Assembly: GCA_017620915.1 (NCBI GenBank)
Contig: JAFZSK010000014.1
Span: forward strand, 2,712-66,711
Direction of reading: 5' to 3'
Source: Clostridia bacterium
GTDB lineage: Bacteria > Bacillota > Clostridia > UBA1212 > UBA1255
Length of the DNA: 64,000 nt
A program made the translations under genes and the position numbers. The notes beneath the pieces were generated by a model. The model worked only from the letters and a program-made list of their open reading frames with translations. It searched no databases and was not told where the DNA came from. Positions within the stretch are counted from its first letter, which is position 1, and each line of letters begins with the position of its first letter. Below, piece by piece: positions 2,753 through 52,409 of this stretch.

Positions 2753-4508
2753 AAGCCTTTCTTCTTTCTTCCATGTAGCCCGGGATCGGCACATCCCACC
2801 AGCCGAACGCTTCGCCGCCGGACCAGGGGTGTACGGAAGATACGGGCACGTGGATCAGCGCGGGGCCGTTCTGCTTGAGGGCGTCGGTCAGCGCGGCTTT
2901 GAGGCTCGCGTTGTCCTCCGCGCGGTACGCTTTGATATGGAAGCCCTCGGCGATGGCGCGGAAGTCCGGCGTGTACATTTTGCCGTCCTGTTCGAAGTCG
3001 TTGCCGAAGGTGTTTTCTTTGCCCAGCACATCCACCTGGAGGTCTTTGATGGCCATCCAGCCGCGGTTGTCCGCCAGTATGATCACGATGGGGATATTGT
3101 ACTGCGCCGCCGTAGACAATTCCTGCATCACCATCATAAAGTCGCCGTCGCCCACGAGGGCAACCACCGGCCGCTCCGGCGCCGCCAGCTTCGCGCCCAG
3201 CGCCGCGGGGAACGCCCAGCCCATGGTGGAGAAGCCGCCTGTGGTCAGGTTGCAGCCGCGCTCTGCGTAGCAGTATTCCTGGAACAGCTGCGCCTGGGTG
3301 TTGCCCGAAGACGTAGCGATGATCGTATCTTTCGGCAGCGTATCCGCCAGCACGCCGATCATGCGAGAGATGGTCATCTCCTGCGTCTGCGCGTTCCATT
3401 TGTCATGCACGAATTTGAACCAGTCCGCGCGGCGCTGTTTGATCTCGTCCAGGTAAGCCTGGTTGACTGTGAAGTCCGGATCTTTTTCCAGCACGCGGGT
3501 GAGGAAGGCGTTGACATCGGAGAACACGCCTACATCCGCGGCGTAGTTCTTGCCGATCTCGTGGCCGTCCAGATCCACCTGGATCAGCTTGGTATCCGGG
3601 AAGTTGAACGCCACGCCCTTGCGGTACGAGCAGGTGGACTCGTCGGCAAACCGCGTGCCCAGCGCCAGTATCACGTCCGCGCTGCGGCTGATCTCGAGAC
3701 CGATCTTGGTGCCCTTGCTGCCCGTGTGGAAGCAGTACTGGTCGTGGGTCTCGCGCACGGTGCCTTTGGCCGCCAGCGTGGTGATGATCGCCGCACCCCA
3801 TTTTTCCGCCAGTTTTTCGATGAGCTCGCCGGATTTAGCGTGCAGCGCGCCGCCGCCCGCAAAGATCAGCGGCCGTTTGGCGGTCTTCATAAGTTCGATG
3901 GCTTTGTCCACGGCGCCTTCATCCGGGCCCGGGAGCGTCCAGACCGGCTGCTTGGCCAGCGGGATCGTTTTTTCGGTGGAATCCGCCTGCACGTCCATGG
4001 GCAATGTGATGGCGCACGGACCGCGCCGCCCGGACAACATCTCTTTGAACGCGTTGTTCATGATGCGGGGCAGCTGATCCGCGGTCTCGGCGCGCCAGCA
4101 GCGTTTTACCAGCGGCTCCAGCGCGCGCTGGATGTTGCTGTCGTGGTTCTTTTCCACTTCCTGCAGCACGCCCACGCCGTACATGTTTGTGTGGGTGTCT
4201 CCGCACAGCGCCAGGAACGGGGTGGAGTCAACGAACGCCGTTGCCAGCCCGATGGACAGGTTCAGCGTGCCGGGGCCAATGGAGGCAAACACTGCCAGCG
4301 GCTCGCCCTTGACGCGGTAGTAGCCGTCCGCGATAGCCGTTGCCGCCTGCTCGTGCTTGACCTGCATATACTTGATCTTGCCGTCTGCTTCCGCCTTGCG
4401 GATCGCGTCGAACAGTCCCAGCACGCCGTGGCCGGGGATGCCCAGAATGTACGGCACTTTTTCATTTATAAGTTTCTGTACGATAACTTCTCCGCCAGTC
4501 TTTTTCAT
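2721..4508 (-). CDS. Thiamine-pyrophosphate enzyme of the acetolactate-synthase-large-subunit superfamily (IolD-like or Xsc-like; specificity unresolved)
   Basis: 595 aa with three-domain TPP-enzyme architecture: N-terminal PYR domain HEQAA..ADGY, a central domain, and C-terminal GDGDFMM...ILADNRGW (the TPP-binding GDG...N motif). Confidence 0.8.
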   Translation of the reverse strand: MKKTGGEVIVQKLINEKVPYILGIPGHGVLGLFDAIRKAEADGKIKYMQVKHEQAATAIADGYYRVKGEPLAVFASIGPGTLNLSIGLATAFVDSTPFLALCGDTHTNMYGVGVLQEVEKNHDSNIQRALEPLVKRCWRAETADQLPRIMNNAFKEMLSGRRGPCAITLPMDVQADSTEKTIPLAKQPVWTLPGPDEGAVDKAIELMKTAKRPLIFAGGGALHAKSGELIEKLAEKWGAAIITTLAAKGTVRETHDQYCFHTGSKGTKIGLEISRSADVILALGTRFADESTCSYRKGVAFNFPDTKLIQVDLDGHEIGKNYAADVGVFSDVNAFLTRVLEKDPDFTVNQAYLDEIKQRRADWFKFVHDKWNAQTQEMTISRMIGVLADTLPKDTIIATSSGNTQAQLFQEYCYAERGCNLTTGGFSTMGWAFPAALGAKLAAPERPVVALVGDGDFMMVMQELSTAAQYNIPIVIILADNRGWMAIKDLQVDVLGKENTFGNDFEQDGKMYTPDFRAIAEGFHIKAYRAEDNASLKAALTDALKQNGPALIHVPVSSVHPWSGGEAFGWWDVPIPGYMEERRKAYEHAITEETV

Positions 4509-4557
4509 AGTAGCTCCTTAACTTAAAACTTAAAACTTATAACTTGCAACTTGCAAC

Positions 4558-5610
4558 TTATTTGAGTTCCAGGTACGGATACGTGTCATTGACCACGATC
4601 TCGACCTTCCGGTTCTCCTCGATGCTCTTGATGCTGGCCAGCACCATGGCGATGCTGTAAACGTTGTCCTTGCAGTCCGTGCCGGGCGTGCGGCCGGTGT
4701 CCAGCGCGTCGAACAGATCTTCCAGTGCGCCGTCATGCTGATCGCGCACGACCTCAGGCTTCTCGAACACGCCCTCTTTGTACCACTCGCCGTAGTGGAG
4801 GCCGTTGGTGTGCTCAAAGTATTGGTAGTGCACGTCGCCGAAGCCGTCCCAGACCACGGAGCCCTTGTCGCAGTCGATGCGCCATTCGTTGTCCCAGGAT
4901 GTCCAGCAGGCCTGCGCGCCGTTGTAGCCGCGGAACAGGTAGGTCACGCCGTTGTCGAACTCGAATACCGCGTCGCACGCGGAATCGCCGGTGTACATGG
5001 AGCCCTTCGGCCGGAAGCTGTGGTAGATGACCGACGTGGGCTTGCCGTCCACGAGGTAGCGCGCCATATCGAAGCTGTGGATGTTGTTGTCCTGCAGCTG
5101 CGGGTATTTGAGGTTGTTGCGGATGCTGCCCATATCGGCGTTGACGTAAATGCTGCCGCTCAGCAGGGTAGGTTCGCCCAGCAGGCCGGATTTGACCAGT
5201 TCGCGGATCTTGCCCACGCGGTCAATGAAGCGGCGGTTCTGCATCACGAAGTAGTGCTTGCCGGTCTCGTCCACGGTCTTGAGGATCTCGTTGACCTGGT
5301 CAACGGTGAACGCCATCGGCTTCTCGCCGAACACGTTGTAGCCCGCTTTCAGCGCAGTGGTGACGATCTCGCAGTGCGCGGTGACGAAGGTGAGGTCAAT
5401 GAGCAGATCGCCCTTTTCGTTCTCCAGCGCTTCTTTTTCGCTGGTGTAGATGCGGCAGTCGAGGCCGTAGCGGTCGCGGTATTTGATGGCGTTGTCAACG
5501 TTCCGGTCCACGAGCGCGAGTACTTTGCAGTCGTCGCGTTTGGTGATGTGATCCAGCCAGCGGAAGGTGATGGCGCCGCAGCCGACGATGATGATGTTGT
5601 GTTTGATCAT
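4558..5610 (-). CDS. Gfo/Idh/MocA-family NAD(P)-dependent oxidoreductase (inositol 2-dehydrogenase-like)
   Basis: MIKHNIIIVGCGAITFRWL Rossmann N-terminus. AAAGGAG RBS 7 nt upstream of the ATG at 5610. The longer track ORF start was rejected. Confidence 0.85.
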   Translation of the reverse strand: MIKHNIIIVGCGAITFRWLDHITKRDDCKVLALVDRNVDNAIKYRDRYGLDCRIYTSEKEALENEKGDLLIDLTFVTAHCEIVTTALKAGYNVFGEKPMAFTVDQVNEILKTVDETGKHYFVMQNRRFIDRVGKIRELVKSGLLGEPTLLSGSIYVNADMGSIRNNLKYPQLQDNNIHSFDMARYLVDGKPTSVIYHSFRPKGSMYTGDSACDAVFEFDNGVTYLFRGYNGAQACWTSWDNEWRIDCDKGSVVWDGFGDVHYQYFEHTNGLHYGEWYKEGVFEKPEVVRDQHDGALEDLFDALDTGRTPGTDCKDNVYSIAMVLASIKSIEENRKVEIVVNDTYPYLELK

Positions 5611-6677: not shown

Positions 6678-6822
6678 TGTCAGCCACAATTCTATTTTTA
6701 GTTGATTGTGGCTGATGGATAGAAGGAGTGTGTCAGCCACAATCCGTCATTTTGCCAATTGTGGCTGATGGACAGAAGAAGTGCGTCAGCCACAATCCGT
6801 TGTTTTGCCAATTGTGGCTGAC
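6678..6822. repeat. Tandem palindromic repeat family A: 3 copies of about 53 bp, each TGTCAGCCACAAT-N14-ATTGTGGCTGA
   Basis: Read directly at 6678-6732, 6733-6785 and 6786-6822. The arms are perfect 11-bp inverted repeats. The array sits in the divergent intergenic region between the catabolic operon and the IclR gene. Confidence 0.9.
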
Positions 6823-11203: not shown

Positions 11204-11520
11204 TTCGTCAGCCACAAAGTGCAAAAGTCCCGAGTTGTGGCTGACACCTCCTTGTGATTCGTCAGCCACAAAGTGCAAAAACCCCGGGTTGTGGCTGACA
11301 CCTTCCGCTGATTCGTCAGCCACAAAGTGCAAAAGCCCCGGGTTGTGGCTGACACCTCCTTGTGATCCGTCAGCCACAAAGTGCAAAAACCCTGGGTTGT
11401 GGCTGACACCTTCTTGTGATTCGTCAGCCACAAAGCGCAATATTCCCGGGGTGTGGCTGACACCTCCTTGTGATTCGTCAGCCACAAAGTGCAAAAGTCC
11501 CGGGTTGTGGCTGACACAAT
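11204..11520. repeat. Tandem palindromic repeat family A-prime: 6 copies of about 61 bp (TCGTCAGCCACAAAGTGCAAAAGTCCCGGGTTGTGGCTGACACCTCCTTGTGAT)
   Basis: The arms GTCAGCCACAA / TTGTGGCTGAC are the same as in family A at 6678 but with a different 17-bp spacer. The six copies are more than 90% identical. They explain the repeat-derived ORFs 11134..11517 and 11144..11743. Confidence 0.9.
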
Positions 11521-11760
11521 TCTTCGCGGAGGCCGAAAAGATGAAAAGAAAGGGGTTTCGGCCTACGTCCATCCTTGTTGCGGAGGCCGAAAAGGTGGAA
11601 AGAAATGGTTTTCGGCCTACGCTCCGCCTCTTCGCGGAGGCCGAAAAGATGGAAAGTAAAGGGTTTCGGCCTACGCTCCACCTCTTCGCGGAGGCCGAAA
11701 AGATGGAAAATAAAGGGTTTCGGCCTCCATCATCGGCCTCCAAACATTTTTCAAAAAAGC
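11521..11760. repeat. Tandem palindromic repeat family B: 4 copies of about 60 bp (CGCGGAGGCCGAAAAGATGGAAAG.AAAGGGTTTCGGCCTACGCTCC)
   Basis: Each unit has GAGGCCGAAA ... TTTCGGCCTC inverted arms. The same family occurs at 32380-32690. Confidence 0.9.
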
Positions 11761-19348: not shown

Positions 19349-19351
19349 GTG

Positions 19352-21709
19352 ATGACATTGTCCGGATCGATCAGTAAGCTCGGGAGCGGGATACAGAAGA
19401 TCGTTGACAAATTCATGGGCTGCGGCCTGTCGCAGGAAGAGACGCGCGCCGAAGGGGAGCGATACGTCACGCCCGGAATCGGCGAAGTGGCCCGTAGAGT
19501 GGCGGCGGAGAGCGTTGTCCTCCTCAAAAACGACGGCATGCTGCCGCTCTCGAAGGAGAAGCCGGTGGCGGTGTTCGGGCGTTGTCAGTTCGACTGGTTT
19601 TACGTGGGATACGGCAGCGGCGGCAACGTCCACGCGCCCTATTATGTGAATCTGATGAAGGGGCTGGACAACGCGGGCGCGGCATACGACCGCGAACTGG
19701 CGGCGGAGTACCGCAGCTGGACAGAGAGTCCGAAATACAAGGCGAACCACGGCTGGTGGGGGCACTGGCCGTTCAGCCATCCGGAGATGGAAATCACGGA
19801 CGAGACGCTTAGGCGGGCGGCGGACAATACGGACACCGCACTGGTGGTCATCGGCCGCGCGGCCGGCGAGGATCGGGACAACCGCCTTATTCAGGGCAGC
19901 TACTATCTGACCGACGCGGAGCTCCGGCTGCTGGACCAGGTCACCGAGGCGTTTGCGCATGTTGCCGTCGTGCTCAACACCGGCAGCATCATCGATATGG
20001 CGTGGACGGAGCGGTACGGGAATAGATTGTCCGCGATCCTGATCGCGTGGCTGGGCGGCATGGAGAGCGGCAACGCGGTGGCCGACGTCCTGTACGGCGC
20101 CGTCGATCCATGCGGGAAGCTGCCGGACACCATCGCGCGGCGATACGAGGATTATCCGTCGGCGGCGAATTTCGGGGGCAAAAAGTTCAACGAATACCGC
20201 GAAGACGTGTTCGTGGGCTACCGGTATTTTGACGAGCATCCGGACCGGGTGCTGTGGCCGTTCGGGTTCGGATTGAGCTACGCGCAGTACGAGTTCGGGG
20301 CGCCGGAGGACAGCGTGCGCCTGCCGGAAGCGGACAACGCGCCGCTGCGGCTGCGCGCGGAAATTACAGTGAAGAATCTTGGCTTTTGTACAGGGGGACA
20401 GACCCCGTGTTCAAAAAGCCGGACGTCGGTGGCGCTGTATTGCCGCCGGCCGGAGGGCAATATCCGCAAGCCGCGCCGGGTGCTGGTCGCCTTCGCGATG
20501 ACGCAGGAACTGGCGCCGGGAGAGGCGGAGCGCGTGGTGCTGGAGGCGGATGCGAAGAGCATTGCCACCTTCGACGCAGACCGGAACGCGTTCGTGCTGG
20601 AAGCGGGTCAATACGAGTTTTACGCGGAATCCACCCCGATCGGCGGTTTTTCGACGGAGTTCCGCGTGCTGGAGCAGTGCACTGAGATTTGCACCTCGAG
20701 CGTCGCACTGCGCGAGCGTATCCTGTCTGATTTGAACAAGGGGACAGACCCCGTGTCAAAAGAAAGCGTGTCAGCTCACGCGGCGGAGATCTTAGACCGG
20801 CTCACGGACGCGGATATGGCGGCGTTGACCCGCGGCCACGGAATGATGAACTCCCCGCTGGGCACGAAGGGCAACGCCGGCGTTCTCGGCGGCATCACGC
20901 CGGCGCTCCGGGAAGCGGGTATTCCGCCCATTGTCACCTCCGACGGCCCCGCGGGCCTCAGGCTCGCCGCGTATTGTACGCTCTTGCCGTGCGGGACCGC
21001 CATTGCCGCCTGCCGGGACACGGCGCTGGCAGAGCAATTGTTCGCGCTGGTGGGGAATGAAATGGGGCACTACGGCATTGACATCTTCCTCGGCCCCGGC
21101 ATGAACCTGCACCGCAACCCGCTCTGCGGCCGGAATTTCGAGTATTTCGCGGAAGACCCCGTGGTCACCGGAACCATGGCGACGGCGGTGGTGCGCGGCA
21201 TACAGTCCGCGGGCAAAGCGGCCTGCCCGAAGCATTTCGCGTGCAACAACCAGGAGTTCAAGCGCAACACCAACGACTCGCGGCTGTCAACACGCGCCCT
21301 GCGCGAACTCTATCTCCGCGGCTTCGAGATCTGCGTAAAGACCGCAGCGCCCCTCGTGCTGATGACCTCGTACAACAAGGTCAACGGCGTCTGGGCCCAC
21401 TACAATTACGACCTGGCCACCGCGGTGCTGCGGGGCGAGTGGGGATTCGAGGGCCTGGTGATCACCGACTGGTGGATGCAGCGGTCAAAAAGCCCCGAAT
21501 TTCCGCGCCTCCGGGACAATGCGTACCGCGTCCGCGCGGGTGTTGACGTCCTGATGCCGGGCAACCTCGGCAAATCTGCCCACAAATACGTCCCCGACCG
21601 CTCGCTGACGAAGCGCCTCGACACGCCCGGCGGGCTTACGCGCGCCGAACTGCGCCGGACCGCGGCACGGGTGATAAGGCTGGGGGAGAAAATTAAAAGT
21701 GATAAGTGA
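19352..21709 (+). CDS. Glycoside hydrolase family 3 beta-glucosidase-like enzyme (domain order permuted; carries two in-frame palindromic element insertions)
   Basis: GH3 catalytic-domain motifs (KHFACNNQE..R, SYNKVNGVWAHYNYDL, GFEGLVITDWW) lie in the C-terminal half. The GH3 C-terminal alpha/beta domain lies in the N-terminal half. Confidence 0.8.
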   Translation: MTLSGSISKLGSGIQKIVDKFMGCGLSQEETRAEGERYVTPGIGEVARRVAAESVVLLKNDGMLPLSKEKPVAVFGRCQFDWFYVGYGSGGNVHAPYYVNLMKGLDNAGAAYDRELAAEYRSWTESPKYKANHGWWGHWPFSHPEMEITDETLRRAADNTDTALVVIGRAAGEDRDNRLIQGSYYLTDAELRLLDQVTEAFAHVAVVLNTGSIIDMAWTERYGNRLSAILIAWLGGMESGNAVADVLYGAVDPCGKLPDTIARRYEDYPSAANFGGKKFNEYREDVFVGYRYFDEHPDRVLWPFGFGLSYAQYEFGAPEDSVRLPEADNAPLRLRAEITVKNLGFCTGGQTPCSKSRTSVALYCRRPEGNIRKPRRVLVAFAMTQELAPGEAERVVLEADAKSIATFDADRNAFVLEAGQYEFYAESTPIGGFSTEFRVLEQCTEICTSSVALRERILSDLNKGTDPVSKESVSAHAAEILDRLTDADMAALTRGHGMMNSPLGTKGNAGVLGGITPALREAGIPPIVTSDGPAGLRLAAYCTLLPCGTAIAACRDTALAEQLFALVGNEMGHYGIDIFLGPGMNLHRNPLCGRNFEYFAEDPVVTGTMATAVVRGIQSAGKAACPKHFACNNQEFKRNTNDSRLSTRALRELYLRGFEICVKTAAPLVLMTSYNKVNGVWAHYNYDLATAVLRGEWGFEGLVITDWWMQRSKSPEFPRLRDNAYRVRAGVDVLMPGNLGKSAHKYVPDRSLTKRLDTPGGLTRAELRRTAARVIRLGEKIKSDK
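20384..20417. mobile_element. In-frame palindromic element copy (TTTTGTACAGGGGGACAGACCCCGTGTTCAAAAA) inside the GH3 gene
   Basis: Imperfect palindrome. It encodes the extra peptide FCTGGQTPCSKS within a GH3 beta-sandwich region. It has TGT where the consensus TGA would create an in-frame stop. Confidence 0.7.
20731..20762. mobile_element. Second in-frame palindromic element copy (TTTGAACAAGGGGACAGACCCCGTGTCAAAAG) inside the GH3 gene, in a different reading frame
   Basis: Encodes LNKGTDPVSKE. Same core, GGGGACAGACCCC. Confidence 0.7.
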
Positions 21710-21865
21710 TAAGTTATAAGTGATAAGTGATAAGGGAGGGACTTCCAACTTCTAACTTGAAACTTAAAACTTAAAACTTGAAACTTTACATTCTTCCGTG
21801 ACTGGGATATAATGCACATATGCAGCGAGCGCAAAACGCGCTCCGTAAAAAGGAGGAACGAAATC

Positions 21866-22300: not shown

Positions 22301-22352
22301 TGGAGCTGTTCAAAAACCTTGCCTGCTCTTGCGAGGCGGATGAACAGCTCCA
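22301..22352. terminator. Hairpin TGGAGCTGTTCA...TGAACAGCTCCA (12-bp stem, long loop) after the DUF4870 gene
   Basis: Read directly. It shares the GCTGTTCAAAAACCTGCC motif with the terminator at 45376. Confidence 0.4.
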
Positions 22353-22463
22353 TCTTATAACGGCTGTTAAAACAGGGACGGTGTTCAGGCAGCCTTTTCT
22401 TTTTGTTTTTTCCGTGGTTATATAGTGAAAAGGCAGTTGGGAATACTTCCGGCGCCATGGGTG

Positions 22464-22775
22464 GTATCCCTAATTTAGAAATATGAAAAACGGGATACCG
22501 CCAGCGCTCCGAACGGTATCCCTAATTTAGGTATATGTAAAATTAGGATACCGCCAACGCTCCGAGTGGTATCCCTAATTTATGGATATGGAAAAACGGG
22601 ATGCCGCCAGCGCTCCGAGCGTTATCCCTGATTTCGGTATATGAAAAATCGGGATACCGCCAGCGCTCCGAGTGGTATCCCTAATTTAGAGATATGGAAA
22701 AACGGGATACCGCCAATGCTCCGAGCGGTATCCCTGATTTAGAAATATGGAAAATCGGGATACCGTCAATGGATT
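22464..22775. repeat. Tandem palindromic repeat family C: 6 copies of about 52 bp (GGTATCCCTAATTTAGAAATATGGAAAAACGGGATACCGCCAGCGCTCCGAGC)
   Basis: Arms GGTATCCC / GGGATACC separated by about 21 nt. Six copies are phased 51-53 bp apart upstream of the GH2 gene. Confidence 0.9.
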
Positions 22776-24763: not shown

Positions 24764-25111
24764 GTGTTGACAAGCAAGGCGAGAGCAGAACTCCGGGCGG
24801 AGGCCAACGAACTGCAGGCGATCTTTCAGATCGGCAAAGGCGGTGTGGAAGAAAACCTGATAAAGCAGGTGGACGATGCGCTGGAAGCCCGCGAACTGAT
24901 AAAAATAAAGGCGCTGGAAACGGCGCCGTTGTCCGCGAAAGAAGCGGCAGAAGCGCTGGCGGAGGCAACGGGCGCCGACGTGGTGCAGGTCGTCGGCCGC
25001 GCGATAGTGCTGTGGCGGAAATCAAATAAGTTGCAAGTTGCAAGTGATAAGTTGCAAATTAAGGGCGGCAAATTGCCGGCGGGAGGCAGAAAAAATGCAG
25101 CGAAACGCTAA
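24764..25111 (+). CDS. yhbY: YhbY/CRS1-type CRM-domain RNA-binding protein (ribosome assembly), with C-terminus extended through a low-complexity tract
   Basis: LTSKARAELRAEANELQAIFQIGKGGVEENLIKQVDDALEARELIKIK...VVQVVGRAIVLWRKS is canonical YhbY. The last about 28 aa are encoded by the AAGTTGCAAGTTGCAAGTGATAAGTTGCAAAT repeat. GTG start with GGAGGA RBS. Confidence 0.75.
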   Translation: MLTSKARAELRAEANELQAIFQIGKGGVEENLIKQVDDALEARELIKIKALETAPLSAKEAAEALAEATGADVVQVVGRAIVLWRKSNKLQVASDKLQIKGGKLPAGGRKNAAKR

Positions 25112-29571: not shown

Positions 29572-32154
29572 ATGGCAGCATTTGAAAAGACCTGTTCCGG
29601 CATTCCGGACATGGACGAGGCGCTTCAGTACATCCGGCTGGGGGACAACGTCGTATGGCACGTGCCCTCACTGGATGAGTTCCGGTACGTTGCCCGGAAG
29701 TTCGCGCAGCAGGCGATCAACGACCGCCGCAATCTCATATACGTCCGCTTTGCGGAGCACGCGCCGATCCTCGAGCCGCAGGAGGGATTGAAGATCGAGC
29801 ATGTGGAATTGTCCCACCGCTTCGAGACCTTCACAGTCAACATCCACAACCTGATCGAGCGGGAAGGGAAGGACGCGTTCTATGTGTTCGACTGCCTGTC
29901 GGAGCTCGAACAGGCGTGGTCCACCGACCTGATGATGGGCAACTTCTTCCACCTGACTTGCCCGTTCCTGTTCATTCTCGACACCGTCGCGTTTTTCCCG
30001 GTCATCCGCGGCCGCCATTCTTTTGACGCCATCGCTACGATACGCGACACTACGCAGCTGTTTCTGGACGTGTACACCGACGTCGGGGACATATACGTGC
30101 GCCCGGTCAAAGTCTGGAACCGCTATTCGCAGACAATGTTCCAGCCGTACCATCTGAGCACCGTGGACAACAGCTTCACCGTCCTCTCCGACGGCACGGA
30201 AGTCAGCCGGTTCTACAGTGTGATGAACAAGGCGGCGAGCCAGGCGGCGGATCAGAACGTGGACAGCTGGGAGCGCTTCTTTACCCGCACGAAGCTGCTG
30301 CACGAAAACGGCATTGACGTCTCGAATGAGTGCTCCAAGATCTGCAATATTATGTTGACCCGCGACGTAAAAATGCGGGAGCTGATCAAGCAGAACTTCA
30401 CGCCGGAGGATTATTTCGAGATCCATTCCCGCATGGTGGGCACCGGCATGATCGGCGGCAAAGCGTGCGGCATGCTGCTGGCGCGCAAGATCGTGGAGAA
30501 TCACCGCCCGGACATTTTCGCGCGCTTCGAGCCGCACGATTCGTACTACATCGGCTCGGACGTATTCTACGCGTATATCGTGGACAACGGCTTCTGGGAC
30601 CTCCGCATAAAACAGCGTACGTCGGAAGGCTATTTCACGCTGGCGAAGGAGTTTGAGCAGCGTATAATGGAGGGCAGATTCTCGCCGCGCATCGAGGCGG
30701 AATTCCGCCGGATACTCGACTATTACGGGGGCGATCCGGTGATCGTCCGCTCCAGCTCGATACTGGAGGATGGTTTCGGCAACGCGTTCGCGGGCAAATA
30801 CGAATCGGTCTTCTGCGGCAGCCAGGGTTCGCCTGAAGATCGCCTGCAGAAGTTCGAAGAGGCGGTGAAGACGGTCTATGCCAGCACGATGAGCCTGTCC
30901 GCCCTGGATTACCGGCGGCGGCGCGGGCTGGACAAGCGCGACGAACAGATGGCAATACTGGTGCAGCGCGTTTCCGGCTCCCGGTACGACGGCTTTTTCA
31001 TGCCCTGCGCCGCGGGTGTTGGATACTCCGCGAGTCCGTACCGCATCGGGTCCGAGCGGCCGAAATCCGGCATGCTGCGGCTGGTGATGGGGCTGGGGAC
31101 TGCGGCCGTTGACCGCCGGACCGGTTCGTATCCGCGCATTGTCCCCCTCGACGATCCGACGAAGCTGCTGCATTCCGCCGCGTCGGACCGGCAGCAATTT
31201 TCGCAGCGCATCGTGGACGCCGTGAGCGCCGCGGCCAACGACGTGGAAGGCTTCGACGCGCTGAAGCTCAGTAAAATCGTGCCGGACTACCTGAAACGAC
31301 TGATGTACACGCACAACTACGACACGGAACAGATCCTGCAGGAACGCGGCGCCTGGCGCGAGGTGCTGTTCGTGACCTGCGACGGATTGACCCGCAACGC
31401 GCAGCTGATGGCGGACATGCGGGACATGCTCGAACTGATCCAGACCCGCTACGAATACCCGGTGGATACGGAATACACGATCAACTTCGCGCCCGACGGC
31501 AGCTACGTGATCGATCTTTTGCAGTGCCGGCCGCTGCAGCTCACGGCGGAGGGGGACAAGGTCAATGTTCCTGATAATATCCCCGCAGGCAATATAATTC
31601 TGGAGACCAGGGGAGTGTCCATGGGCTTTTCGCGGGAACTGGCGCCGGACGCGGTGGTGTACATCGATCCGATCAAGTATTATCAGCTGCCGTACCGCCG
31701 TAAATACGAGGTCAAAACGGCACTTTCGGAGGTCAACTGGTCCTACCGCTCCCAGGGCAAACACCTGCTGCTCCTGACGCCGGGCCGGATCTGCACGTCG
31801 TCGCCGGAACTGGGCGTGCCGTCGGCGTTTGCGGATATCAGCGAGTTTTCGATGATCGCGGAGATCTCCGAGTCGCGCGCGGGCTACATTCCCGAACTGA
31901 GCTACGGCAGCCATATCTTCCAGGATCTGGTGGAGGCGGGGATATTGTACACTGCGGTCTTCGAGCAGGCGAGCACTGTGGCGTATTCGCCGGAACTGCT
32001 GGAGCGATTCCCGGACGCGGCGGCCGCGCTGTCAACGCTCCCCGACGACATCAAAGAAGTCTTCCACGTCTACGTGCCGCCGGCGGGGGCAATACGCCTT
32101 TACTATGACATGGGAGAGGAACACCTGCTCATGATGATTAGTTATAAGTTATAA
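29572..32154 (+). CDS. PEP-utilizing-enzyme family protein with C-terminal pyruvate-phosphate-dikinase/PEP-synthase-type nucleotide-binding (PPDK_N) domain and an about 290-aa N-terminal domain of unknown function
   Basis: ...HSRMVGTGMIGGKACGMLLARKI...YIGSDVFYAYIV... and DPVIVRSSSILEDGFGNAFAGKYESVFC match the PPDK_N ATP-grasp. There is no obvious swivel His domain. GGAGG RBS. Confidence 0.7.
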   Translation: MAAFEKTCSGIPDMDEALQYIRLGDNVVWHVPSLDEFRYVARKFAQQAINDRRNLIYVRFAEHAPILEPQEGLKIEHVELSHRFETFTVNIHNLIEREGKDAFYVFDCLSELEQAWSTDLMMGNFFHLTCPFLFILDTVAFFPVIRGRHSFDAIATIRDTTQLFLDVYTDVGDIYVRPVKVWNRYSQTMFQPYHLSTVDNSFTVLSDGTEVSRFYSVMNKAASQAADQNVDSWERFFTRTKLLHENGIDVSNECSKICNIMLTRDVKMRELIKQNFTPEDYFEIHSRMVGTGMIGGKACGMLLARKIVENHRPDIFARFEPHDSYYIGSDVFYAYIVDNGFWDLRIKQRTSEGYFTLAKEFEQRIMEGRFSPRIEAEFRRILDYYGGDPVIVRSSSILEDGFGNAFAGKYESVFCGSQGSPEDRLQKFEEAVKTVYASTMSLSALDYRRRRGLDKRDEQMAILVQRVSGSRYDGFFMPCAAGVGYSASPYRIGSERPKSGMLRLVMGLGTAAVDRRTGSYPRIVPLDDPTKLLHSAASDRQQFSQRIVDAVSAAANDVEGFDALKLSKIVPDYLKRLMYTHNYDTEQILQERGAWREVLFVTCDGLTRNAQLMADMRDMLELIQTRYEYPVDTEYTINFAPDGSYVIDLLQCRPLQLTAEGDKVNVPDNIPAGNIILETRGVSMGFSRELAPDAVVYIDPIKYYQLPYRRKYEVKTALSEVNWSYRSQGKHLLLLTPGRICTSSPELGVPSAFADISEFSMIAEISESRAGYIPELSYGSHIFQDLVEAGILYTAVFEQASTVAYSPELLERFPDAAAALSTLPDDIKEVFHVYVPPAGAIRLYYDMGEEHLLMMISYKL

Positions 32155-32379
32155 GTTTTAAGTTTTAAGTTGAGGAGTTTTAAGTTGAGGAGTTTTAAGT
32201 TATACGTTCGCTCCTCAACTTATCACTTATCACTTGAAACTTGCAACTTGAAACTTACAACGGAAGTAGTATAATACCGGCATCGGGGAGCGCAAAGAAA
32301 CGGCGCTCAATAATATTGTCCACTATTTGGAGGCAGACCATGAAAGTATGGAAATGCTGTCTGGCGGCGAAAACGCGGC

Positions 32380-32690
32380 TAATTGAGTTTTGGCCTCCGC
32401 TCTTTCTCATTGCGGAGGCTACAATCTCAAAATAGAGGAGTTTCGGCCTCCGCTTCAGCTCATTTGGGAGGCCGAAATCATTAAAAAAAGGAATTGCGGC
32501 CTCCGCTTCAGCTCGTTTGGGAGGCCGAAATCATGAAAAGAAGGAATTGCGGCCTCCGCTTCAGCTCGTTTGGGAGGCCGAAATCATGAAAAGAAGGAAT
32601 TGCGGCCTCCGCTTTAGCTCATTTGGGAGGCCGAAATCATGAAAAGAAGGAATTGCGGCCTCCGCTAGTGGTGGCCGCTTGTTTTTCAGG
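32380..32690. repeat. Tandem palindromic repeat family B-prime: about 5 copies of about 61 bp (GGAGGCCGAAATCATGAAAAGAAGGAATTGCGGCCTCCGCTTCAGCTCGTTTG)
   Basis: Same arm motif (GGAGGCCG / CGGCCTCC) as family B at 11521. Lies upstream of the beta-helix lipoprotein gene. Confidence 0.9.
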
Positions 32691-36293: not shown

Positions 36294-36394
36294 ATTATCT
36301 TCCCACTCCTTAGATGTAGGTTTTGTTTCCCCATGATTATATCGCAGACGTACTGCTTAAATCAATCGCTATGCAACTGGCACTGCCGACATCT

Positions 36395-36800
36395 AGCAAA
36401 AGTGGGAAATTTGGCGGTTTGCTAGACGTGGGCGCCTTCTCTCACTTTTAGGAGCAGCGGGATTTTCGCGAGCGTCTAGCAAAAGTGGTCAAATATAGCG
36501 GTTTGCTAGACGCGGGCTCCTTCTCTCGCTTTTAGGAGTAGCAGGATTTTCGCGAGCGTCTAGTAAAAGTGGTCAAATCAGGTGATTTGCCAGATGCAGG
36601 CTCTTTCTTCCCCTTGAGAAGCAGTAATAATCACAATCATCGTCTAGCAAATCACGAAAAGCAACCGTTTTGCTAGAAGCAGGAGCTTTAACAGTATTGA
36701 AAATGAGCGAGAATTGTAACTGTCGTCTAGCAAATCATAAAGAACAGCCGATTTGCTAGACGCAAGCACTCTTTCTGCTTGCAAAATGGGAATAATCAGT
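36395..36800. repeat. Tandem palindromic repeat family D: 5 copies of about 84 bp, each with GTCTAGCAAA-N20-TTTGCTAGAC
   Basis: Example: CGTCTAGCAAAAGTGGTCAAATATAGCGGTTTGCTAGACG. The array sits in the divergent region between the GH109-like and DUF3737 genes. Confidence 0.85.
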
Positions 36801-39012: not shown

Positions 39013-40539
39013 TTGGCCGGGGAGACAGGAAAGCAATACGAGGCCGTGATCGGCCTGGAGATACATATCGAGGTCAAAGGCGCCGGCAAGATGTTCTGCG
39101 GGTGTCCGGCGGAGTTTTCGTTGACGCCCAACGTCAACGTCTGCCCGATCTGCATGGGCTACCCCGGGGCGCTGCCGCGGTTCAACCGGCGCGTGTTGGC
39201 CCCGGCGGTGCGCGAAGGGCTGATGCTGGGCGCGGAGATCGCGCGGGAGGTCCGGTTCGACCGCAAACACTATTTTTATCCCGACCTGCCGAAGGGCTAC
39301 CAGATCACTCAGGCCGAACTGCCGCTGGCATCCGGCGGCGCGATCTTTGTGCACGGGGACAGACCCGCTTTTGAACACGGGGACAGACCAGTGTTCAAAA
39401 ACGAGGACGAAGTTGCGATCCGCATCCGCCGCATGCACATGGAGGAGGACGCCGCGAAGGTCAATTACGGCGCGGACGGCGCAATGCGCATCGACTACAA
39501 CCGCGCGGGGGTGCCGCTGCTGGAGATCGTCACCGAACCCGACCTGCGGAGCGGCGCGGAAGCGGCGGAATTCGCGGAAAAGCTGCGGCTGTACACGGTG
39601 TACGCGGGGGTCTCGGACTGCCGGATGAACGAGGGCAGTATGCGCATTGACGTCAACGTCTCCGTTCACCGCCCCGGCGATCCGCCCGGCAGCCGGGTGG
39701 AACTGAAAAACATCAATTCCTTTGCGTTCATGCGGGCGGCGATCGATTTCGAAGTCCGGCGCCAGACCGCGCTGCTGGAGGCGGGAGAGGCCGTGCCCCA
39801 GGAGACCCGGCGGTTCTCCGAGGAGACGGGGGAGACGCTCCCGATGCGAGCTAAAGAAAATTCAGCGGAGTACCGGTATCTGCCGGAGCGGGATATTGTC
39901 CCCGTGCCGGTGAGCGCGGAACTGATCGAAGCGGAACGCAAAGCATTGCCGGAAAGACCGGAGGCGAAACTCGCGCGGTATATTGAATCGTTCGGGCTGC
40001 GGGCCGCGGACGCGGAACTGATCGCCTCGGAACCGGCGCGGGCGGCGTATTATGAAGCGGTGTGCGGCGCGGCGGAAATCGCGAGGCGGTATGAGGCGGA
40101 AGCGGCCAAGTTCTGTATCTCCCGGGTGTTTCCCGGCAAGGCGTTGCTGACAACAGCGCAGACCGCGGCGATCGTACGGCTCATTGCGGAAGGCGAACTG
40201 GGCAGCGCGAATGTGGTAAAACTGATCGAGGCGGTGAGCGGCAGACCGGACGCGGATCCGGCCGCGGAGCTGGCCGCGCGGGAACTGGGGCTGATCCGGG
40301 ACGAGGCGGTACTGGCCGAGGCGGCGGACAACGCCATTCGTGATAACCCCGAGGCAGTGCGGCAATACCTGAACGGCAAAACGGCGGCGCTGCAGGCGCT
40401 GAAGGGCGCGTGCATGAAGGCGACGCGGGGGAGAGCGGAACCGATGCGACTTGATTCGGTGCTTAAAAGCAAGTTGCAAATGTCAAATGGCAAAGGGCAA
40501 GTTGCAAATGGCAAGTTGCAAATGGCAAAGGGAAAATGA
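39013..40539 (+). CDS. gatB: Asp-tRNA(Asn)/Glu-tRNA(Gln) amidotransferase subunit B, with in-frame palindromic insertion and low-complexity C-terminal tail
   Basis: YEAVIGLEIHIEVKGAGKMFCGCPAEF...CPICMGYPGALP... then the cradle domain and C-terminal YqeY-like domain. TTG start chosen at 39013 with GAGGAGG RBS. The track ORF extends spuriously upstream. Confidence 0.8.
   Translation: MAGETGKQYEAVIGLEIHIEVKGAGKMFCGCPAEFSLTPNVNVCPICMGYPGALPRFNRRVLAPAVREGLMLGAEIAREVRFDRKHYFYPDLPKGYQITQAELPLASGGAIFVHGDRPAFEHGDRPVFKNEDEVAIRIRRMHMEEDAAKVNYGADGAMRIDYNRAGVPLLEIVTEPDLRSGAEAAEFAEKLRLYTVYAGVSDCRMNEGSMRIDVNVSVHRPGDPPGSRVELKNINSFAFMRAAIDFEVRRQTALLEAGEAVPQETRRFSEETGETLPMRAKENSAEYRYLPERDIVPVPVSAELIEAERKALPERPEAKLARYIESFGLRAADAELIASEPARAAYYEAVCGAAEIARRYEAEAAKFCISRVFPGKALLTTAQTAAIVRLIAEGELGSANVVKLIEAVSGRPDADPAAELAARELGLIRDEAVLAEAADNAIRDNPEAVRQYLNGKTAALQALKGACMKATRGRAEPMRLDSVLKSKLQMSNGKGQVANGKLQMAKGK
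39345..39402. mobile_element. Tandem (about 2 copies) in-frame palindromic element inside gatB (CTTTGTGCACGGGGACAGACCCGCTTTTGAACACGGGGACAGACCAGTGTTCAAAAAC)
   Basis: Encodes the inserted peptide VHGDRPAFEHGDRPVFKN between conserved GatB segments. Confidence 0.7.
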
Positions 40540-40583
40540 TAAAGGGCAAATTGAAAATGGTGAGCGGAGAAGGGAAGAAAAAG

Positions 40584-42125
40584 ATGAGTAATGGATACGT
40601 AAACACCGGACTGCGGGAATTCACCGCGCGGCTGCCGGAGCAGAAGATCGCTGTGCTGGGCTTCGGCGTCAGCAACCGCGCGCTGCTGCGGTTTTTGAAG
40701 GCCAACGGCGCGAAAAAAGTGTTTCTGCTGGAACTGAAGGACAGCGCGGAGGCGCGGGCAGAGGCGGAGGCGCTGGCGGCGGACGGCACGCTGGCGGGAT
40801 TTACGTTCGGGGAGGGGTATCTGGACGGATTGCCCGCAGGCGGCTTCGACCTGATCTTCCGGTCGCCGATAATACGGCCGGACGAGGCGCATATTGACGC
40901 CGCCGTGCGGAACGGAGCGGTATTGACCTCCGAAATGGAAGTGTTCATGGAGCATTGCCCCTGCCCGATGTACGCCATCACCGGCAGCGACGGCAAGACC
41001 ACCACGACCACGCTCACCGCGCGCCTGCTGGAGGAACATTATAAGGACACGGACGTGCGGATCTGGCTCGGCGGCAACATCGGCACCCCCCTCATCGACA
41101 AACTCGACCTGATCCGGCCCCGCGACCGCGTGGTGCTGGAGCTGTCCAGTTTCCAGCTGATGCACACGCGCGTTTCGCCCGAAGCGTCCGCGATCACCAA
41201 CATCACGCCCAACCACCTGAACGTGCACAAGGACTATCAGGAATATATCGATGCCAAAAAGGCCATTTTCAACCGGCCGCTTTTGAACAGGGGACAGACC
41301 CCGATTTTAAACGGGGGACAGACCCGTGTTCAAAAAAAGCGGGTGGTGCTGAACGCAGGCAACGCAGTCACCGCCGGCATCGCGCGCGACCTGGCGGAAA
41401 ACAATGCGGGGGATATGATCGTTGACGTCTTTACCGCCAAATCCGCGAAGGAGACCGCGTTGACGCTGGCGCACAACGGCGCCACGGCGTATTTTGACGA
41501 CGGCAAACTCGTGTTCACCGGCTTCTGCGCGGGCTGCGGCGCCTGCGCGGGACAGCGCTTCGAACTGGCGCGGGAAAACGTGCAGCTTCCGGGCATGCAC
41601 AATGTGGAAAACCTCATGACCGCGGCGCTGCTGCTCCGGACGGAGATCAGCCCGGAGGACGTGCGCGCAGTTGCCGCCCGCTTCGGCGGCGTCGAGCACC
41701 GGCTCGAAAAAGTGCGAGAGCTGGACGGCGTGACGTACATCAACAGTTCTATTGACAGCAGCCCCGAACGCACGATCAACGCGCTCTCGGTATTTCCCGA
41801 CCGCAGCCTAGTGATGATCGCCGGAGGCAAGGACAAAAACCTCGACTACTCGCCGCTGGGCGCGCATCTGGTGCGCAAGGTCAAAACGCTGATCCTCACC
41901 GGTCCCACCGCGGACAAGATCGAGGCGTCGCTGAATGCCGCCGGAGGCGCGGATATTGTCAACGTCGTTCACGCTTCTTCGTATCCCGAGGCGGTTGCCG
42001 CCGCGCGGCGGTGCGCCGTGGCCGGAGATGTTGTCCTCCTGTCGCCCGCCAGCACCAGCTTCGACATGTTCAAAAATTTTGAAGAGCGGGGCAATACGTT
42101 CAAACGGCTGGTGAACGAGCTATAA
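40584..42125 (+). CDS. murD: UDP-N-acetylmuramoyl-L-alanine--D-glutamate ligase, carrying an in-frame palindromic insertion
   Basis: KIAVLGFGVSNRAL Rossmann-like N-terminus, Mur ligase P-loop TGSDGKTTTTTL, and ...GGNIGTPL..., ..NSSIDSSPERT.. MurD motifs. RBS GGAGAAGGG before the ATG at 40584. Confidence 0.85.
   Translation: MSNGYVNTGLREFTARLPEQKIAVLGFGVSNRALLRFLKANGAKKVFLLELKDSAEARAEAEALAADGTLAGFTFGEGYLDGLPAGGFDLIFRSPIIRPDEAHIDAAVRNGAVLTSEMEVFMEHCPCPMYAITGSDGKTTTTTLTARLLEEHYKDTDVRIWLGGNIGTPLIDKLDLIRPRDRVVLELSSFQLMHTRVSPEASAITNITPNHLNVHKDYQEYIDAKKAIFNRPLLNRGQTPILNGGQTRVQKKRVVLNAGNAVTAGIARDLAENNAGDMIVDVFTAKSAKETALTLAHNGATAYFDDGKLVFTGFCAGCGACAGQRFELARENVQLPGMHNVENLMTAALLLRTEISPEDVRAVAARFGGVEHRLEKVRELDGVTYINSSIDSSPERTINALSVFPDRSLVMIAGGKDKNLDYSPLGAHLVRKVKTLILTGPTADKIEASLNAAGGADIVNVVHASSYPEAVAAARRCAVAGDVVLLSPASTSFDMFKNFEERGNTFKRLVNEL
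41280..41338. mobile_element. Tandem in-frame palindromic element inside murD (CTTTTGAACAGGGGACAGACCCCGATTTTAAACGGGGGACAGACCCGTGTTCAAAAAAA)
   Basis: Encodes LLNRGQTPILNGGQTRVQKK, inserted in the central domain. Confidence 0.7.
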
Positions 42126-52215: not shown

Positions 52216-52409
52216 GCAGGTCACAGACGCAGCCGACCTTTGCCATTTGCCCTTTGTCATTTACCCCCTGTCCCTTGCCCTTTGCCCCTTGCGCCAAGGC
52301 TGTCTTCGTGGTACAATACTATGAGGTGCTTTGGCCGCAGGCCCGAACGCCGCCAAATGGCAATTTGCAAACAGCAAGTTGCATGAAATAATTCAGAAGG
52401 TGAAATTCA

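Follow-up and report, generated by a model that had tools for sequence, protein, structure and literature searches.

Repetitive extragenic palindromic (REP) elements are imperfect palindromes of 20-40 nt that exist in many dispersed copies and in local clusters, predominantly outside genes and usually 3' of them. Two large superfamilies are defined by a GTAG or a CGTC tag (PMC3733652). In a REPtron, such repeats flank on both sides a gene for a Y1/HUH transposase, the REP-associated tyrosine transposase (RAYT), and REP/RAYT pairs are described as usually lineage-specific and vertically inherited. Intragenic REPs are also known, including RPE-4, RPE-6 and RPE-1 among the Rickettsia palindromic elements (RPEs) and the GTAG repeats of Opitutus terrae (PMC3733652). 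Many of them are dimers, they contribute 20-30 residues to the protein, and loops and linkers are regarded as the places that tolerate them (PMC3733652). In-frame selfish DNA in working genes is documented mainly in Rickettsia and in a few Proteobacteria and Verrucomicrobia, and the REP survey cited above makes no mention of Firmicutes. Here we analyse a 64-kb stretch of DNA from an uncultured Clostridia bacterium, referred to in full as the window, in which a short hairpin element lies inside three protein-coding genes, and we relate this element to the systems described so far.

With high confidence, the element can be called a DNA repeat that proliferates and whose in-frame insertions selection tolerates. 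In one lineage of uncultured rumen Clostridia its copies have multiplied, in coding and non-coding DNA alike. Local growth and shrinkage occur by one arm and one core (24 nt, sometimes 36 nt), which leads to (arm-core)n-arm arrays. The explanation that we favour, with some reserve, is that of a short, non-autonomous selfish hairpin of the REP/RPE kind, which survives in-frame in genes and is probably moved in trans by a RayT-type transposase. Taken by itself, the part played by such an enzyme is held with moderate confidence. Intragenic REPs being already known, what we class as new is a predominantly intragenic element of rumen Clostridia that shares its apex with RayT-flanking hairpins of Bacteroidales.

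The element and its copies in the window

The unit is a 33-nt hairpin, TTTTGAACAC-GGGGACAGACCCC-GTGTTCAAAA, composed of two 10-nt A/T-rich inverted arms (TTTTGAACAC and GTGTTCAAAA), a GGGG/CCCC clamp and an ACAGA loop; the arms of the Clostridia-lineage element can be written as TTGAACAC. The 33-nt consensus has a 13-bp stem and a predicted RNA fold energy of -21.9 kcal/mol, and predicted values for element hairpins range from -11 to -27 kcal/mol. In the window there are six units of 32-33 nt at four sites, in a gene for a family-3 glycoside hydrolase (GH3), in gatB and in murD (Table 1). All six are on the + strand, in sense orientation to the host genes. An earlier note on this DNA had described a family of palindromes of about 32 bp at these same four sites, with the encoded peptides FCTGGQTPCSKS, LNKGTDPVSKE, HGDRPAFEHGDRPVFKN and LLNRGQTPILNGGQTRVQKK. 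Sites and peptides proved correct, as did the statement that no open reading frame (ORF) is interrupted: all six units are in-frame and free of stop codons.

The core is read in three frames, giving GQT, GTD and GDR. In the GQT frame the consensus left arm would give TGA, and here the first GH3 copy has TGT, as had been noticed before. The murD copy, with its core in this same frame, escapes the TGA by an arm that is 1 nt shorter. Both the gatB and the murD array have the form arm-core-arm-core-arm', with the period assigned by Tandem Repeats Finder (TRF). An example of a peptide that spans an element is IFVHGDRPAFEHGDRPVFK.

With at most two mismatches, the 13-mer core matches the window 8 times where 1.48 matches are expected, a count not attained in any of 100 shuffles. 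Furthermore, an nhmmer profile built from copies outside the window recovers exactly the six units (E from 1.7e-11 to 3.6e-5; 1.7e-11 and 7.5e-9 for the first and second GH3 copies) and gives no other significant match in the 64 kb. Chance is therefore excluded. The elements are found at the same sites in independent assemblies (ENA, NCBI, JGI and the RUG set) and are therefore not assembly artefacts. Arm-like matches at 22307, 42067 and 45384 turned out to be unrelated, being a conserved MurD C-terminal motif and ordinary terminators.

Among 100 unique copies, 34 have at least 7 of the 10 arm positions paired. Within the lineage the arms amount essentially to a single family, in which pair 6 is often an A-C mismatch, and a covariation check gave no informative double changes. 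A link with tRNA was considered because the repeated left flank CGAACCATCTGAGCTCACAC looked like part of one, but a run of ARAGORN on 8 loci gave no tRNA.

Table 1. Repeats and host genes in the window
Feature	Position	Strand	Sequence, product or basis
Element copy 1, GH3 gene	20384..20417	+	cTTTTGTACAG-GGGGACAGACCCC-GTGTTCAAAAag; encodes FCTGGQTPCSK
Element copy 2, GH3 gene	20731..20762	+	ATTTGAACAA-GGGGACAGACCCC-GTGTCAAAAG; right arm 1 nt short; encodes LNKGTDPVSKE
Two-unit array, gatB	39345..39402	+	24-nt period; TTTGTGCAC-GGGGACAGACCC-GC, then TTTTGAACAC-GGGGACAGACC-A-GTGTTCAAAAAC; encodes FVHGDRPAFEHGDRPVFKN
Two-unit array, murD	41280..41338	+	24-nt period; TTTTGAACA-GGGGACAGACCCC-GA, then TTTTAAACG-GGGGACAGACCC-GTGTTCAAAAAAA; encodes LLNRGQTPILNGGQTRVQKK
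Host gene 1, GH3	19349..21709	+	circularly permuted family-3 glycoside hydrolase; Pfam; PDB homolog 5wug_A
Host gene 2, gatB	39013..40539	+	Asp/Glu-tRNA amidotransferase subunit B; Pfam, gene call, homologs
Host gene 3, murD	40536..42125	+	UDP-N-acetylmuramoylalanine-D-glutamate ligase; Pfam, gene call, PDB matches
Heptamer repeats	4513-4560, 21693-21786, 25024-25075, 32140-32257, 40469-40560, 52237-52383		GCAAGTT, GCAAATG, AAGTGAT, AACTTAA
Intergenic tandem arrays	6705-6821, 11204-11517, 11521-11726, 22463-22769, 32436-32666		53-54 bp period
Tandem array	36392-36608		84-bp period, 2.6 copies

Insertion versus ancestral sequence

The identity of GatB homologs falls steeply, from five proteins at 81-93% to 57% and then to 47% or less; the lineage is therefore isolated. 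Within it, the number of units at the gatB site varies (loci and proteins are cited below by their L and P numbers). In the protein alignment P0003 and P0004 have none, P0002 has one, the window has two and P0005 has three. At the DNA level, L018 and L019 are empty (about 90-91% nucleotide identity), L020 has one unit, the window and L045 have two, and L021 and the rumen metagenome-assembled genome (MAG) RUG12823 have three. The step among these relatives, 81-93% identical, is 24 nt. The segment is absent from all GatBs at 57% identity or less. The murD site holds one or two units in all four relatives that cover it, and RUG12823 has orthologous elements in GH3 (both copies, ortholog L010), gatB and murD.

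Compared with empty alleles and orthologs, the copies add 8-12 codons. Since gatB is empty in relatives at about 90% identity and distant GatBs lack the segment, the window copies are, on these alignments, insertions and not ancestral sequence. The earlier note had asked whether unrelated orthologs carry the same peptides; the GatB and PDB alignments run without them. Moreover, in two pairs of contigs at 96-97% identity, L015 and L033 as well as L017 and L042, clean indels of 36-nt units are seen, which on sequence comparison is recent activity.

The murD gene of L021 has an in-frame TAG at about 3020-3030 where the window has CAG (KDY*EY versus KDYQEY), and the gene is called in two pieces. 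An error of sequencing, a pseudogene and recoding are all conceivable here.

Position of the inserts in the host proteins

The host genes were identified with Pfam and with the gene calls on the source contig, a 70-kb MEGAHIT contig of ENA sample ERZ27256909. The first GH3 copy corresponds to about 7 extra residues relative to 5wug_A, in an NTG..G loop at the start of the Fn3-like domain, while the second lies in the linker between the Fn3-like domain and GH3_N, where the Pfam domains stop at residue 426 and resume at 519. Compared with Aquifex GatB (3h0l_B), the GatB of the window has additional residues, which come at a hairpin close to residue 110 of the Aquifex protein. In the AlphaFold model of GatB (mean predicted local distance difference test, pLDDT, 82) the element residues 115-127 are modelled with low confidence (pLDDT 54-70), as a coil with strand 110-114 before it and strand 128-145 after it. 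On the strength of the PDB alignments, the Pfam linker and the modelled coil, the GatB and GH3 inserts are placed in loops or linkers. The alignment of MurD to solved structures ends directly before the element, after AKKAIFNR.

The domain order of the GH3 protein (GH3_C, Fn3-like, GH3_N) is permuted with respect to the usual one, and the top solved homologs, 5wug_A and 5k6l_A, share this order.

Placement, reading frame and selection in the lineage

A copy was considered coding when GC3 > GC1 and GC3-GC2 > 0.18 (G+C content by codon position) in an open stretch of at least 100 codons, a criterion calibrated on genes of the window. Of 100 unique copy contexts in the Clostridia lineage, 58 are genic-sense, 17 genic-antisense and 25 intergenic; orthologous and tandem copies are included, so that the counts are not independent. 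About 75% of the catalogued copies are thus intragenic, as are all four sites of the window. The 58 sense copies are read in the GDRP frame (24), the GTDP frame (23) and the GQT frame (11); the last, under-represented one is the frame in which the canonical arm gives TGA. The antisense frame GVCP is absent although it is stop-free. All intragenic copies are without a stop codon, and arms that would give TGA are altered.

Array periods within genes are a multiple of three in 16 of 17 cases, mostly 24, versus 3 of 8 between genes (22, 24, 24, 25, 25, 30, 35 and 35). In-frame length therefore acts as a selection filter and is not built in. This also speaks for translation of the inserts, because removal at the RNA level would leave length and stop codons unconstrained. 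Rather than being a property by design, the avoidance of TGA and the lengths that keep the frame look like the outcome of selective survival. Judging from these statistics, only those copies would survive within genes whose length is a multiple of three, which are stop-free and which lie in tolerant places, such as loop tips, inter-domain linkers, n-regions of signal peptides and gene termini. Their translation would yield loops rich in Gly, Pro, Asp, Thr and Arg, for example F-x-H-GDRP-VFK, LN-x-GTDP-VFK and LN-R-GQT-P/R. The other host ORFs are ordinary genes according to Pfam (P-type ATPase, asparagine synthase, U32 peptidase, rhamnosidase, DUF1015), and the placements comprise loops, linkers, signal peptides and two fused ORFs.

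Both fused ORFs are continuous and have the element in the linker: in L002 (1128-2186) a TadA-type deaminase is joined to LuxS, and in L013 (4505-5737) a dUTPase is joined to IspF, which follows directly without a start codon of its own. Here the element may have replaced a stop codon and an intergenic spacer, thereby creating the TadA-LuxS and dUTPase-IspF fusions. On the minus strand of L017, at about 960-1060, two 30-nt units are read as KLTRGQTRFQ twice; they lie within a lipoprotein-like signal peptide (M..KKLTRGQTRFQKLTRGQTRFQKNRSQKR...LMPTFSGC), in its positively charged n-region. A unit present in both L011 (2035-2065) and L028 (269-297) gives, by its sequence, a perfect 12/12 match to a sigma-70-type promoter, TTGACA-17-TATAAT. 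The arm provides TTGACA, the core provides the 17-nt spacer and TATAAT follows; a leader hairpin with a T-run and a gene come next.

Directly 3' of the A-run of the right arm, CGGGG occurs in about 10 of 47 terminal copies versus 1.4% in the background (examples are L020 4500, L006 1644, L009 154, L014 7680 and L056 1128), while its mirror CCCCG is rare 5' of the left arm (about 3 of 52). This CGGGG may mark a target or a cleavage site, or may be what is left of an additional unit.

Distribution in genomes and metagenomes

An exact pattern of core and right arm was scanned against one genome each of 185,579 species. It matched 15 stretches, all in the single rumen MAG RUG12823 ('uncultured Ruminococcus sp.'); an extra single-copy match in an unrelated Saprospiraceae MAG was read as chance. 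RUG12823 has 47 exact cores in about 85 kb of loci, with up to 14 cores in 8 kb. A scan of metagenomes, in which the apex and 4 nt of each arm were specified, gave 38 loci with up to 14 cores in 14.6 kb. The family proposed in the earlier note thus recurs far beyond chance, densely both in a related genome and in metagenomes, as lineage-specific insertions.

About half of the 38 loci are high-GC, Clostridia-like, dense and have the same arms. The remainder, of 33-55% GC, have the same 13-nt apex with different, mutually complementary arms, such as GAGCTCACAC...GTGTGAGC, GCAGACAC...GTGTCTGC and AAGATACAC...GTGTATCTT. The element is accordingly not restricted to one lineage, its apex being found with other arms in Prevotella-like contigs as well. 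In the lower-GC, Bacteroidales-like contigs the hairpins are mostly intergenic, in terminator-like contexts.

Outside the Clostridia lineage, a contig of 55% GC (L024 5330-5380, also L032) contains an 858-aa ORF in which two units stand in-frame and inverted to each other (GHMGTDPRVSSVADYTGSVPVCP); that lineage is therefore not alone in having in-frame copies within genes. A viral origin was considered and abandoned, since an apex scan of 2.9 million viral contigs gave no match. An exact-sequence literature search with three core variants retrieved no paper in the searchable library.

The link with Y1 transposases

Contig L046 (45% GC) encodes a 261-aa protein with a Y1_Tnp (IS200-like) domain (Pfam PF01797, E=4.5e-12) and with the motifs NHVHLLV (HxH) and YIHQNP (the catalytic-Tyr motif YxxxNP). 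At 27 nt 3' of its stop codon stands the hairpin CTGCACAC-GGGGACAGACCCC-GTGTGCAC, and three more cores are found upstream, beyond an inserted IS110. A protein 83% identical to it, P0122, is encoded on six contigs with Bacteroidales-type neighbours (Mfa-like fimbrial genes), and in 6 of 6 its gene is bracketed on both sides by GTGCACAG-GGGGACAGTCCCC-CTGTGCAC. In L061 and L062 there are, in addition, hairpins ATCTATCAG-GGGGACAGACCCC-xTGATAGAT near the P0122 gene. Altogether seven Prevotella-like contigs (L046 and L060-L065) carry apex-flanked Y1 genes. Many Y1 genes of this family are on contigs of about 1 kb, as is to be expected for genes bracketed by repeats.

The homologs of the L046 transposase are Prevotella/Bacteroidales proteins, for which the JGI name is 'REP element-mobilizing transposase RayT'. 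The layout around the L046 and P0122 genes is what Di Nocera et al. 2013 (PMC3733652) call a REPtron. With its NHVH and YIHQNP motifs the transposase fits RAYT subclass 2.6, described by Quentin et al. 2018 (PMC6006769) as 'flanked by atypical secondary structures' and mostly from Bacteroidetes.

A search with P0122 of a representative library of 1.84 billion proteins gave 789 clusters at E<=1e-30, which makes this a large family. Clostridia candidates were chosen by amino-acid composition, as a proxy for GC content, and their names and contigs were then inspected. The Clostridia-type or GC-rich homologs with a readable contig (L066-L071) are all flanked by an inverted repeat of the GGGACGGTTCT type and none by the element. 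In L066, L068 and L071 these are 27-nt inverted repeats AGAC(A/G)CGGGGACGGTTCTTTTGTCTTG, with variants in L067, L069 and L070, and they share GACACGGGGAC with the element. In L066 the inverted repeat is abutted by TTTTTGACACGGGGAACAGAC, which equals the left arm and core of the element with one extra base, and in L071 by GTGTTCAAAAA. Repeats of the AGAC(A/G)CGGGGACGGTTCTTTTGTCTTG type are absent from the window and from the element-rich loci. The motif GGGGAC(A/G)G is nevertheless shared by the ends that the transposase clade recognises; this speaks for, without proving, movement of the element by a member of the clade.

Because the same apex flanks Y1 genes on both sides in Prevotella-like genomes, and because the repeats at the Clostridia homologs contain GACACGGGGAC, copying in trans by a RayT-type HUH tyrosine (Y1) transposase seems probable. 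Such an enzyme would recognise the folded, single-stranded hairpin via its GGGGACAG apex.

Two further loci were inspected. An ORF of L028 (10294-11316) between inverted clusters resembles, by eye, an ordinary phosphoesterase-type protein and not a transposase. In L039 (11050-12350) there is a different Y1 transposase of 147 aa, with the motifs DHVH and YIINQKEHH, which fits subclass 1.2 of Quentin et al. (PMC6006769). It is bracketed by arrays of 75-bp repeats with two hairpins (TGACCGCAACGCGGTCA and CCGTAGGACCTACGG), and a GGGGACAGACCCC hairpin lies about 600 bp downstream.

Relationship to known palindromic elements

The element resembles REPs in its length, in its many dispersed copies and in its local clusters, and resembles REPtrons in the flanking of Y1 genes by its apex. 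It differs from them in its mostly intragenic position, in an apex that is common to two phyla, and in several respects that bear on the favoured explanation and are discussed below.

With RPE-1 to RPE-8 and the Opitutus REPs it has in common that palindromes lie in-frame in functional genes, including housekeeping genes. However, its host is a free-living gut Firmicute, and not an obligate intracellular alphaproteobacterium (Rickettsia) or a verrucomicrobium (Opitutus). The unit measures 24-33 nt versus about 100-150 nt for RPE-1, and RPE-4 and RPE-6 are CGTC-tagged while the element is not. The genome scan matched no Rickettsiales, and on this ground, without a direct comparison with the RPE consensus, the element is taken to be unrelated to RPEs in sequence. 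The inverted repeats at the Y1 genes of L066-L071, which have the above-mentioned motif in common with the element, are of the TIRYT or 'TIRtron' type, in which long terminal inverted repeats bracket a Y1 transposase gene (Di Nocera et al. 2013, PMC3733652), but they are not the dispersed element.

Of the two likenesses drawn in the earlier note, that with RPEs holds and can be widened to REP/RAYT systems, including the short intragenic RPE-4 and RPE-6; the likeness to Correia repeats does not go beyond general traits of bacterial MITEs (miniature transposable elements with inverted repeats). Like these, the element is small and non-autonomous, has palindromic ends and occasionally creates promoters or terminators. 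Correia elements measure about 100-155 bp, carry inverted repeats of 26 bp and come with a duplication of TA. The element falls well short of this length, lacks long terminal inverted repeats around an internal segment and forms, as a whole unit, one hairpin in which the apex is the conserved part.

A number of observations weigh against the RayT-based explanation or limit it. Searches by hidden Markov model, tblastn and motif regular expressions found no Y1 transposase in about 250 kb of loci of the lineage, window included. As regards a cognate transposase, which the earlier note had proposed to look for, RayT-like genes flanked by the apex are thus found in Prevotella-like contigs but not in the lineage of the window, and a cognate enzyme of this lineage may not exist. 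NF047646, the REP-associated tyrosine transposase family, is the sole NCBIfam match for the L046, P0122 and P0398 proteins, yet the scores of 57, 55.7 and 68.6 bits, respectively, lie under the cut-off of 80. The canonical arms TTTTGAACAC and GTGTTCAAAA are without the GTAG or CGTC tag of REPs; CGTC appears only in a variant right arm, GCGTCAG. Some inverted doublets exist (L015 2301/2339, L015 3309/3357 and L028 10151/10207), but arrays are mostly direct, (arm-core)n-arm with a 24-nt period, versus the inverted doublets (REPINs) typical of RAYT systems. The favoured explanation does not account for the bias of sense over antisense copies in genes, which is 3.4:1 among copies that are not independent. 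For a replication-strand cause the picture is mixed: GC skew makes the + strand of the window probably the leading one, yet both orientations stand side by side in RUG12823 loci.

The gatB junction, the only empty/filled pair, cannot be read as a clean insertion either. Empty alleles read ATCTCTGTGGGCGGGAAC-GCGATC and the one-unit allele ATCTTTGTACACGGGGACAGACCCGTGTTCAAAAACGGGGGTGAAGTCGCGATC, without a target-site duplication, TA included. In the left arm, which runs over host sequence, there are 4-5 substitutions, and together with an additional 3-nt indel they keep the exact junction from being reconstructed. Moreover, gain and loss are inseparable at gatB because the outgroup at 81-82% identity is filled.

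Alternative explanations

The element could owe its spread to host processes without a dedicated enzyme, that is, to template switching or slippage, gene conversion, or biased uptake and recombination in the manner of DNA uptake sequences (USS/DUS). Exact steps of 24 and 36 nt are of the kind that slippage or unequal recombination yields, part of the left arm at gatB seems to derive from host sequence, and the CGGGG after right arms suggests partial or templated units. Slippage, however, accounts neither for the seeding of an identical 13-nt core at more than 100 unrelated loci nor for an apex that recurs with other arms in a second phylum. Uptake sequences arise by substitution, without added length, whereas here codons are inserted, and the association with Y1 genes in seven contigs would have to be coincidence. 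We therefore judge this origin unlikely, although it deserves some weight.

Cut-and-paste transposition as in Correia-like MITEs, by a DDE transposase that reads the A/T-rich arms as terminal inverted repeats, is improbable. The arms are perfect 10-nt inverted repeats, the copies are dispersed and polymorphic, and the lack of a Y1 enzyme in the lineage gives room for another enzyme. However, the inverted repeats of the 33-nt unit enclose no internal segment, the gatB pair is without a target-site duplication and growth is by 24-nt units of arm and core. The conservation of the apex and not the arms across phyla is the opposite of what terminal-repeat recognition requires. No DDE transposase with such ends was noticed in the loci, where the systematic screen covered Y1 only, and the sole other transposase, the IS110 of L046, is merely inserted among hairpins.

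It could also be imagined that the host has repeatedly recruited a functional signal, whether an RNA structure for pausing or mRNA stabilisation, a protein-binding site on DNA or a peptide module. Some intergenic copies look exapted, such as the L011/L028 promoter, lower-GC contigs offer terminator-like contexts, and the sense bias would fit. Yet the host proteins are unrelated and hold their copies at non-homologous positions, and presence varies between near-identical strains in essential genes. Stem mismatches of the G:T and A:C type are equally frequent (18 versus 16), which gives no sign of a strand-specific RNA structure; such a structure was rejected on this basis. Rfam at gathering thresholds has no match in the window and 16 loci, and the GatB loop is modelled as a low-confidence coil. 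Such recruitment is accordingly quite improbable as the general cause. Least credible of all is a mini-intron or bypass, by which the element would be removed or skipped at the RNA or translation level with the proteins unaffected: the RNA hairpin is stable and bypassed palindromic inserts are known in yeast mitochondria, but removal leaves no selection for frame or against stops, in conflict with the lengths and altered TGA arms of the intragenic copies.

Other repeats in the window

The five intergenic arrays of Table 1 with a 53-54 bp period are unrelated in sequence. Each of their units has its own hairpin with a 10-14 bp stem, for example GTCAGCCACAA/TTGTGGCTGAC, GGAGGCCGAAA/TTTCGGCCT and GGTATCCC/GGGATACC. 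The shared period over different sequences suggests a common generating mechanism. An apparently similar array (period by eye) directly follows an element doublet in RUG12823 (L016 2700-2830).

The heptanucleotide tandem repeats are located at gene boundaries. The run at 40469-40560 encodes both the C-terminal tail of GatB (SKLQMSNGKGQVANGKLQMAKGK, pLDDT <50, not in relatives) and the N-terminus of the murD ORF. Comparable runs of heptamers are found in L067 (about 560-700), upstream of a Y1 transposase gene. Finally, the 84-bp-period array stands between a GFO_IDH-type gene and a DUF3737 gene; the two genes after it (DUF3737 and an aminotransferase) are lacking in RUG12823.

Concluding remarks

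The element has several traits that make it useful for study. It is mostly intragenic, close strains differ by whole units in essential genes, and a candidate enzyme family can be named together with a recognition hairpin. Testable questions are thereby opened about the movement of REPs, jumps between phyla, the tolerance of proteins to random loops, and the origin of linkers, fusions and regulatory signals. There are practical consequences as well: such repeats probably break short-read assemblies, the flanking repeats being the likely cause of the short Y1 contigs, and they inflate the apparent divergence of proteins in rumen MAGs.

A wider proposal, which we put forward as tentative, is that a REP/RayT system with the apex GGGGACAG[A/T]CCCC has crossed between Bacteroidales and a Clostridia lineage in the rumen. 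In the Clostridia it would have become mostly intragenic and still active, remodelling proteins by polymorphic 8-residue loops in essential enzymes, n-regions of signal peptides, promoters and the TadA-LuxS and dUTPase-IspF fusions. If this is true, a cross-phylum REP/RayT system would be the free-living counterpart of the RPE phenomenon in Rickettsia, denser and with an identifiable transposase family.

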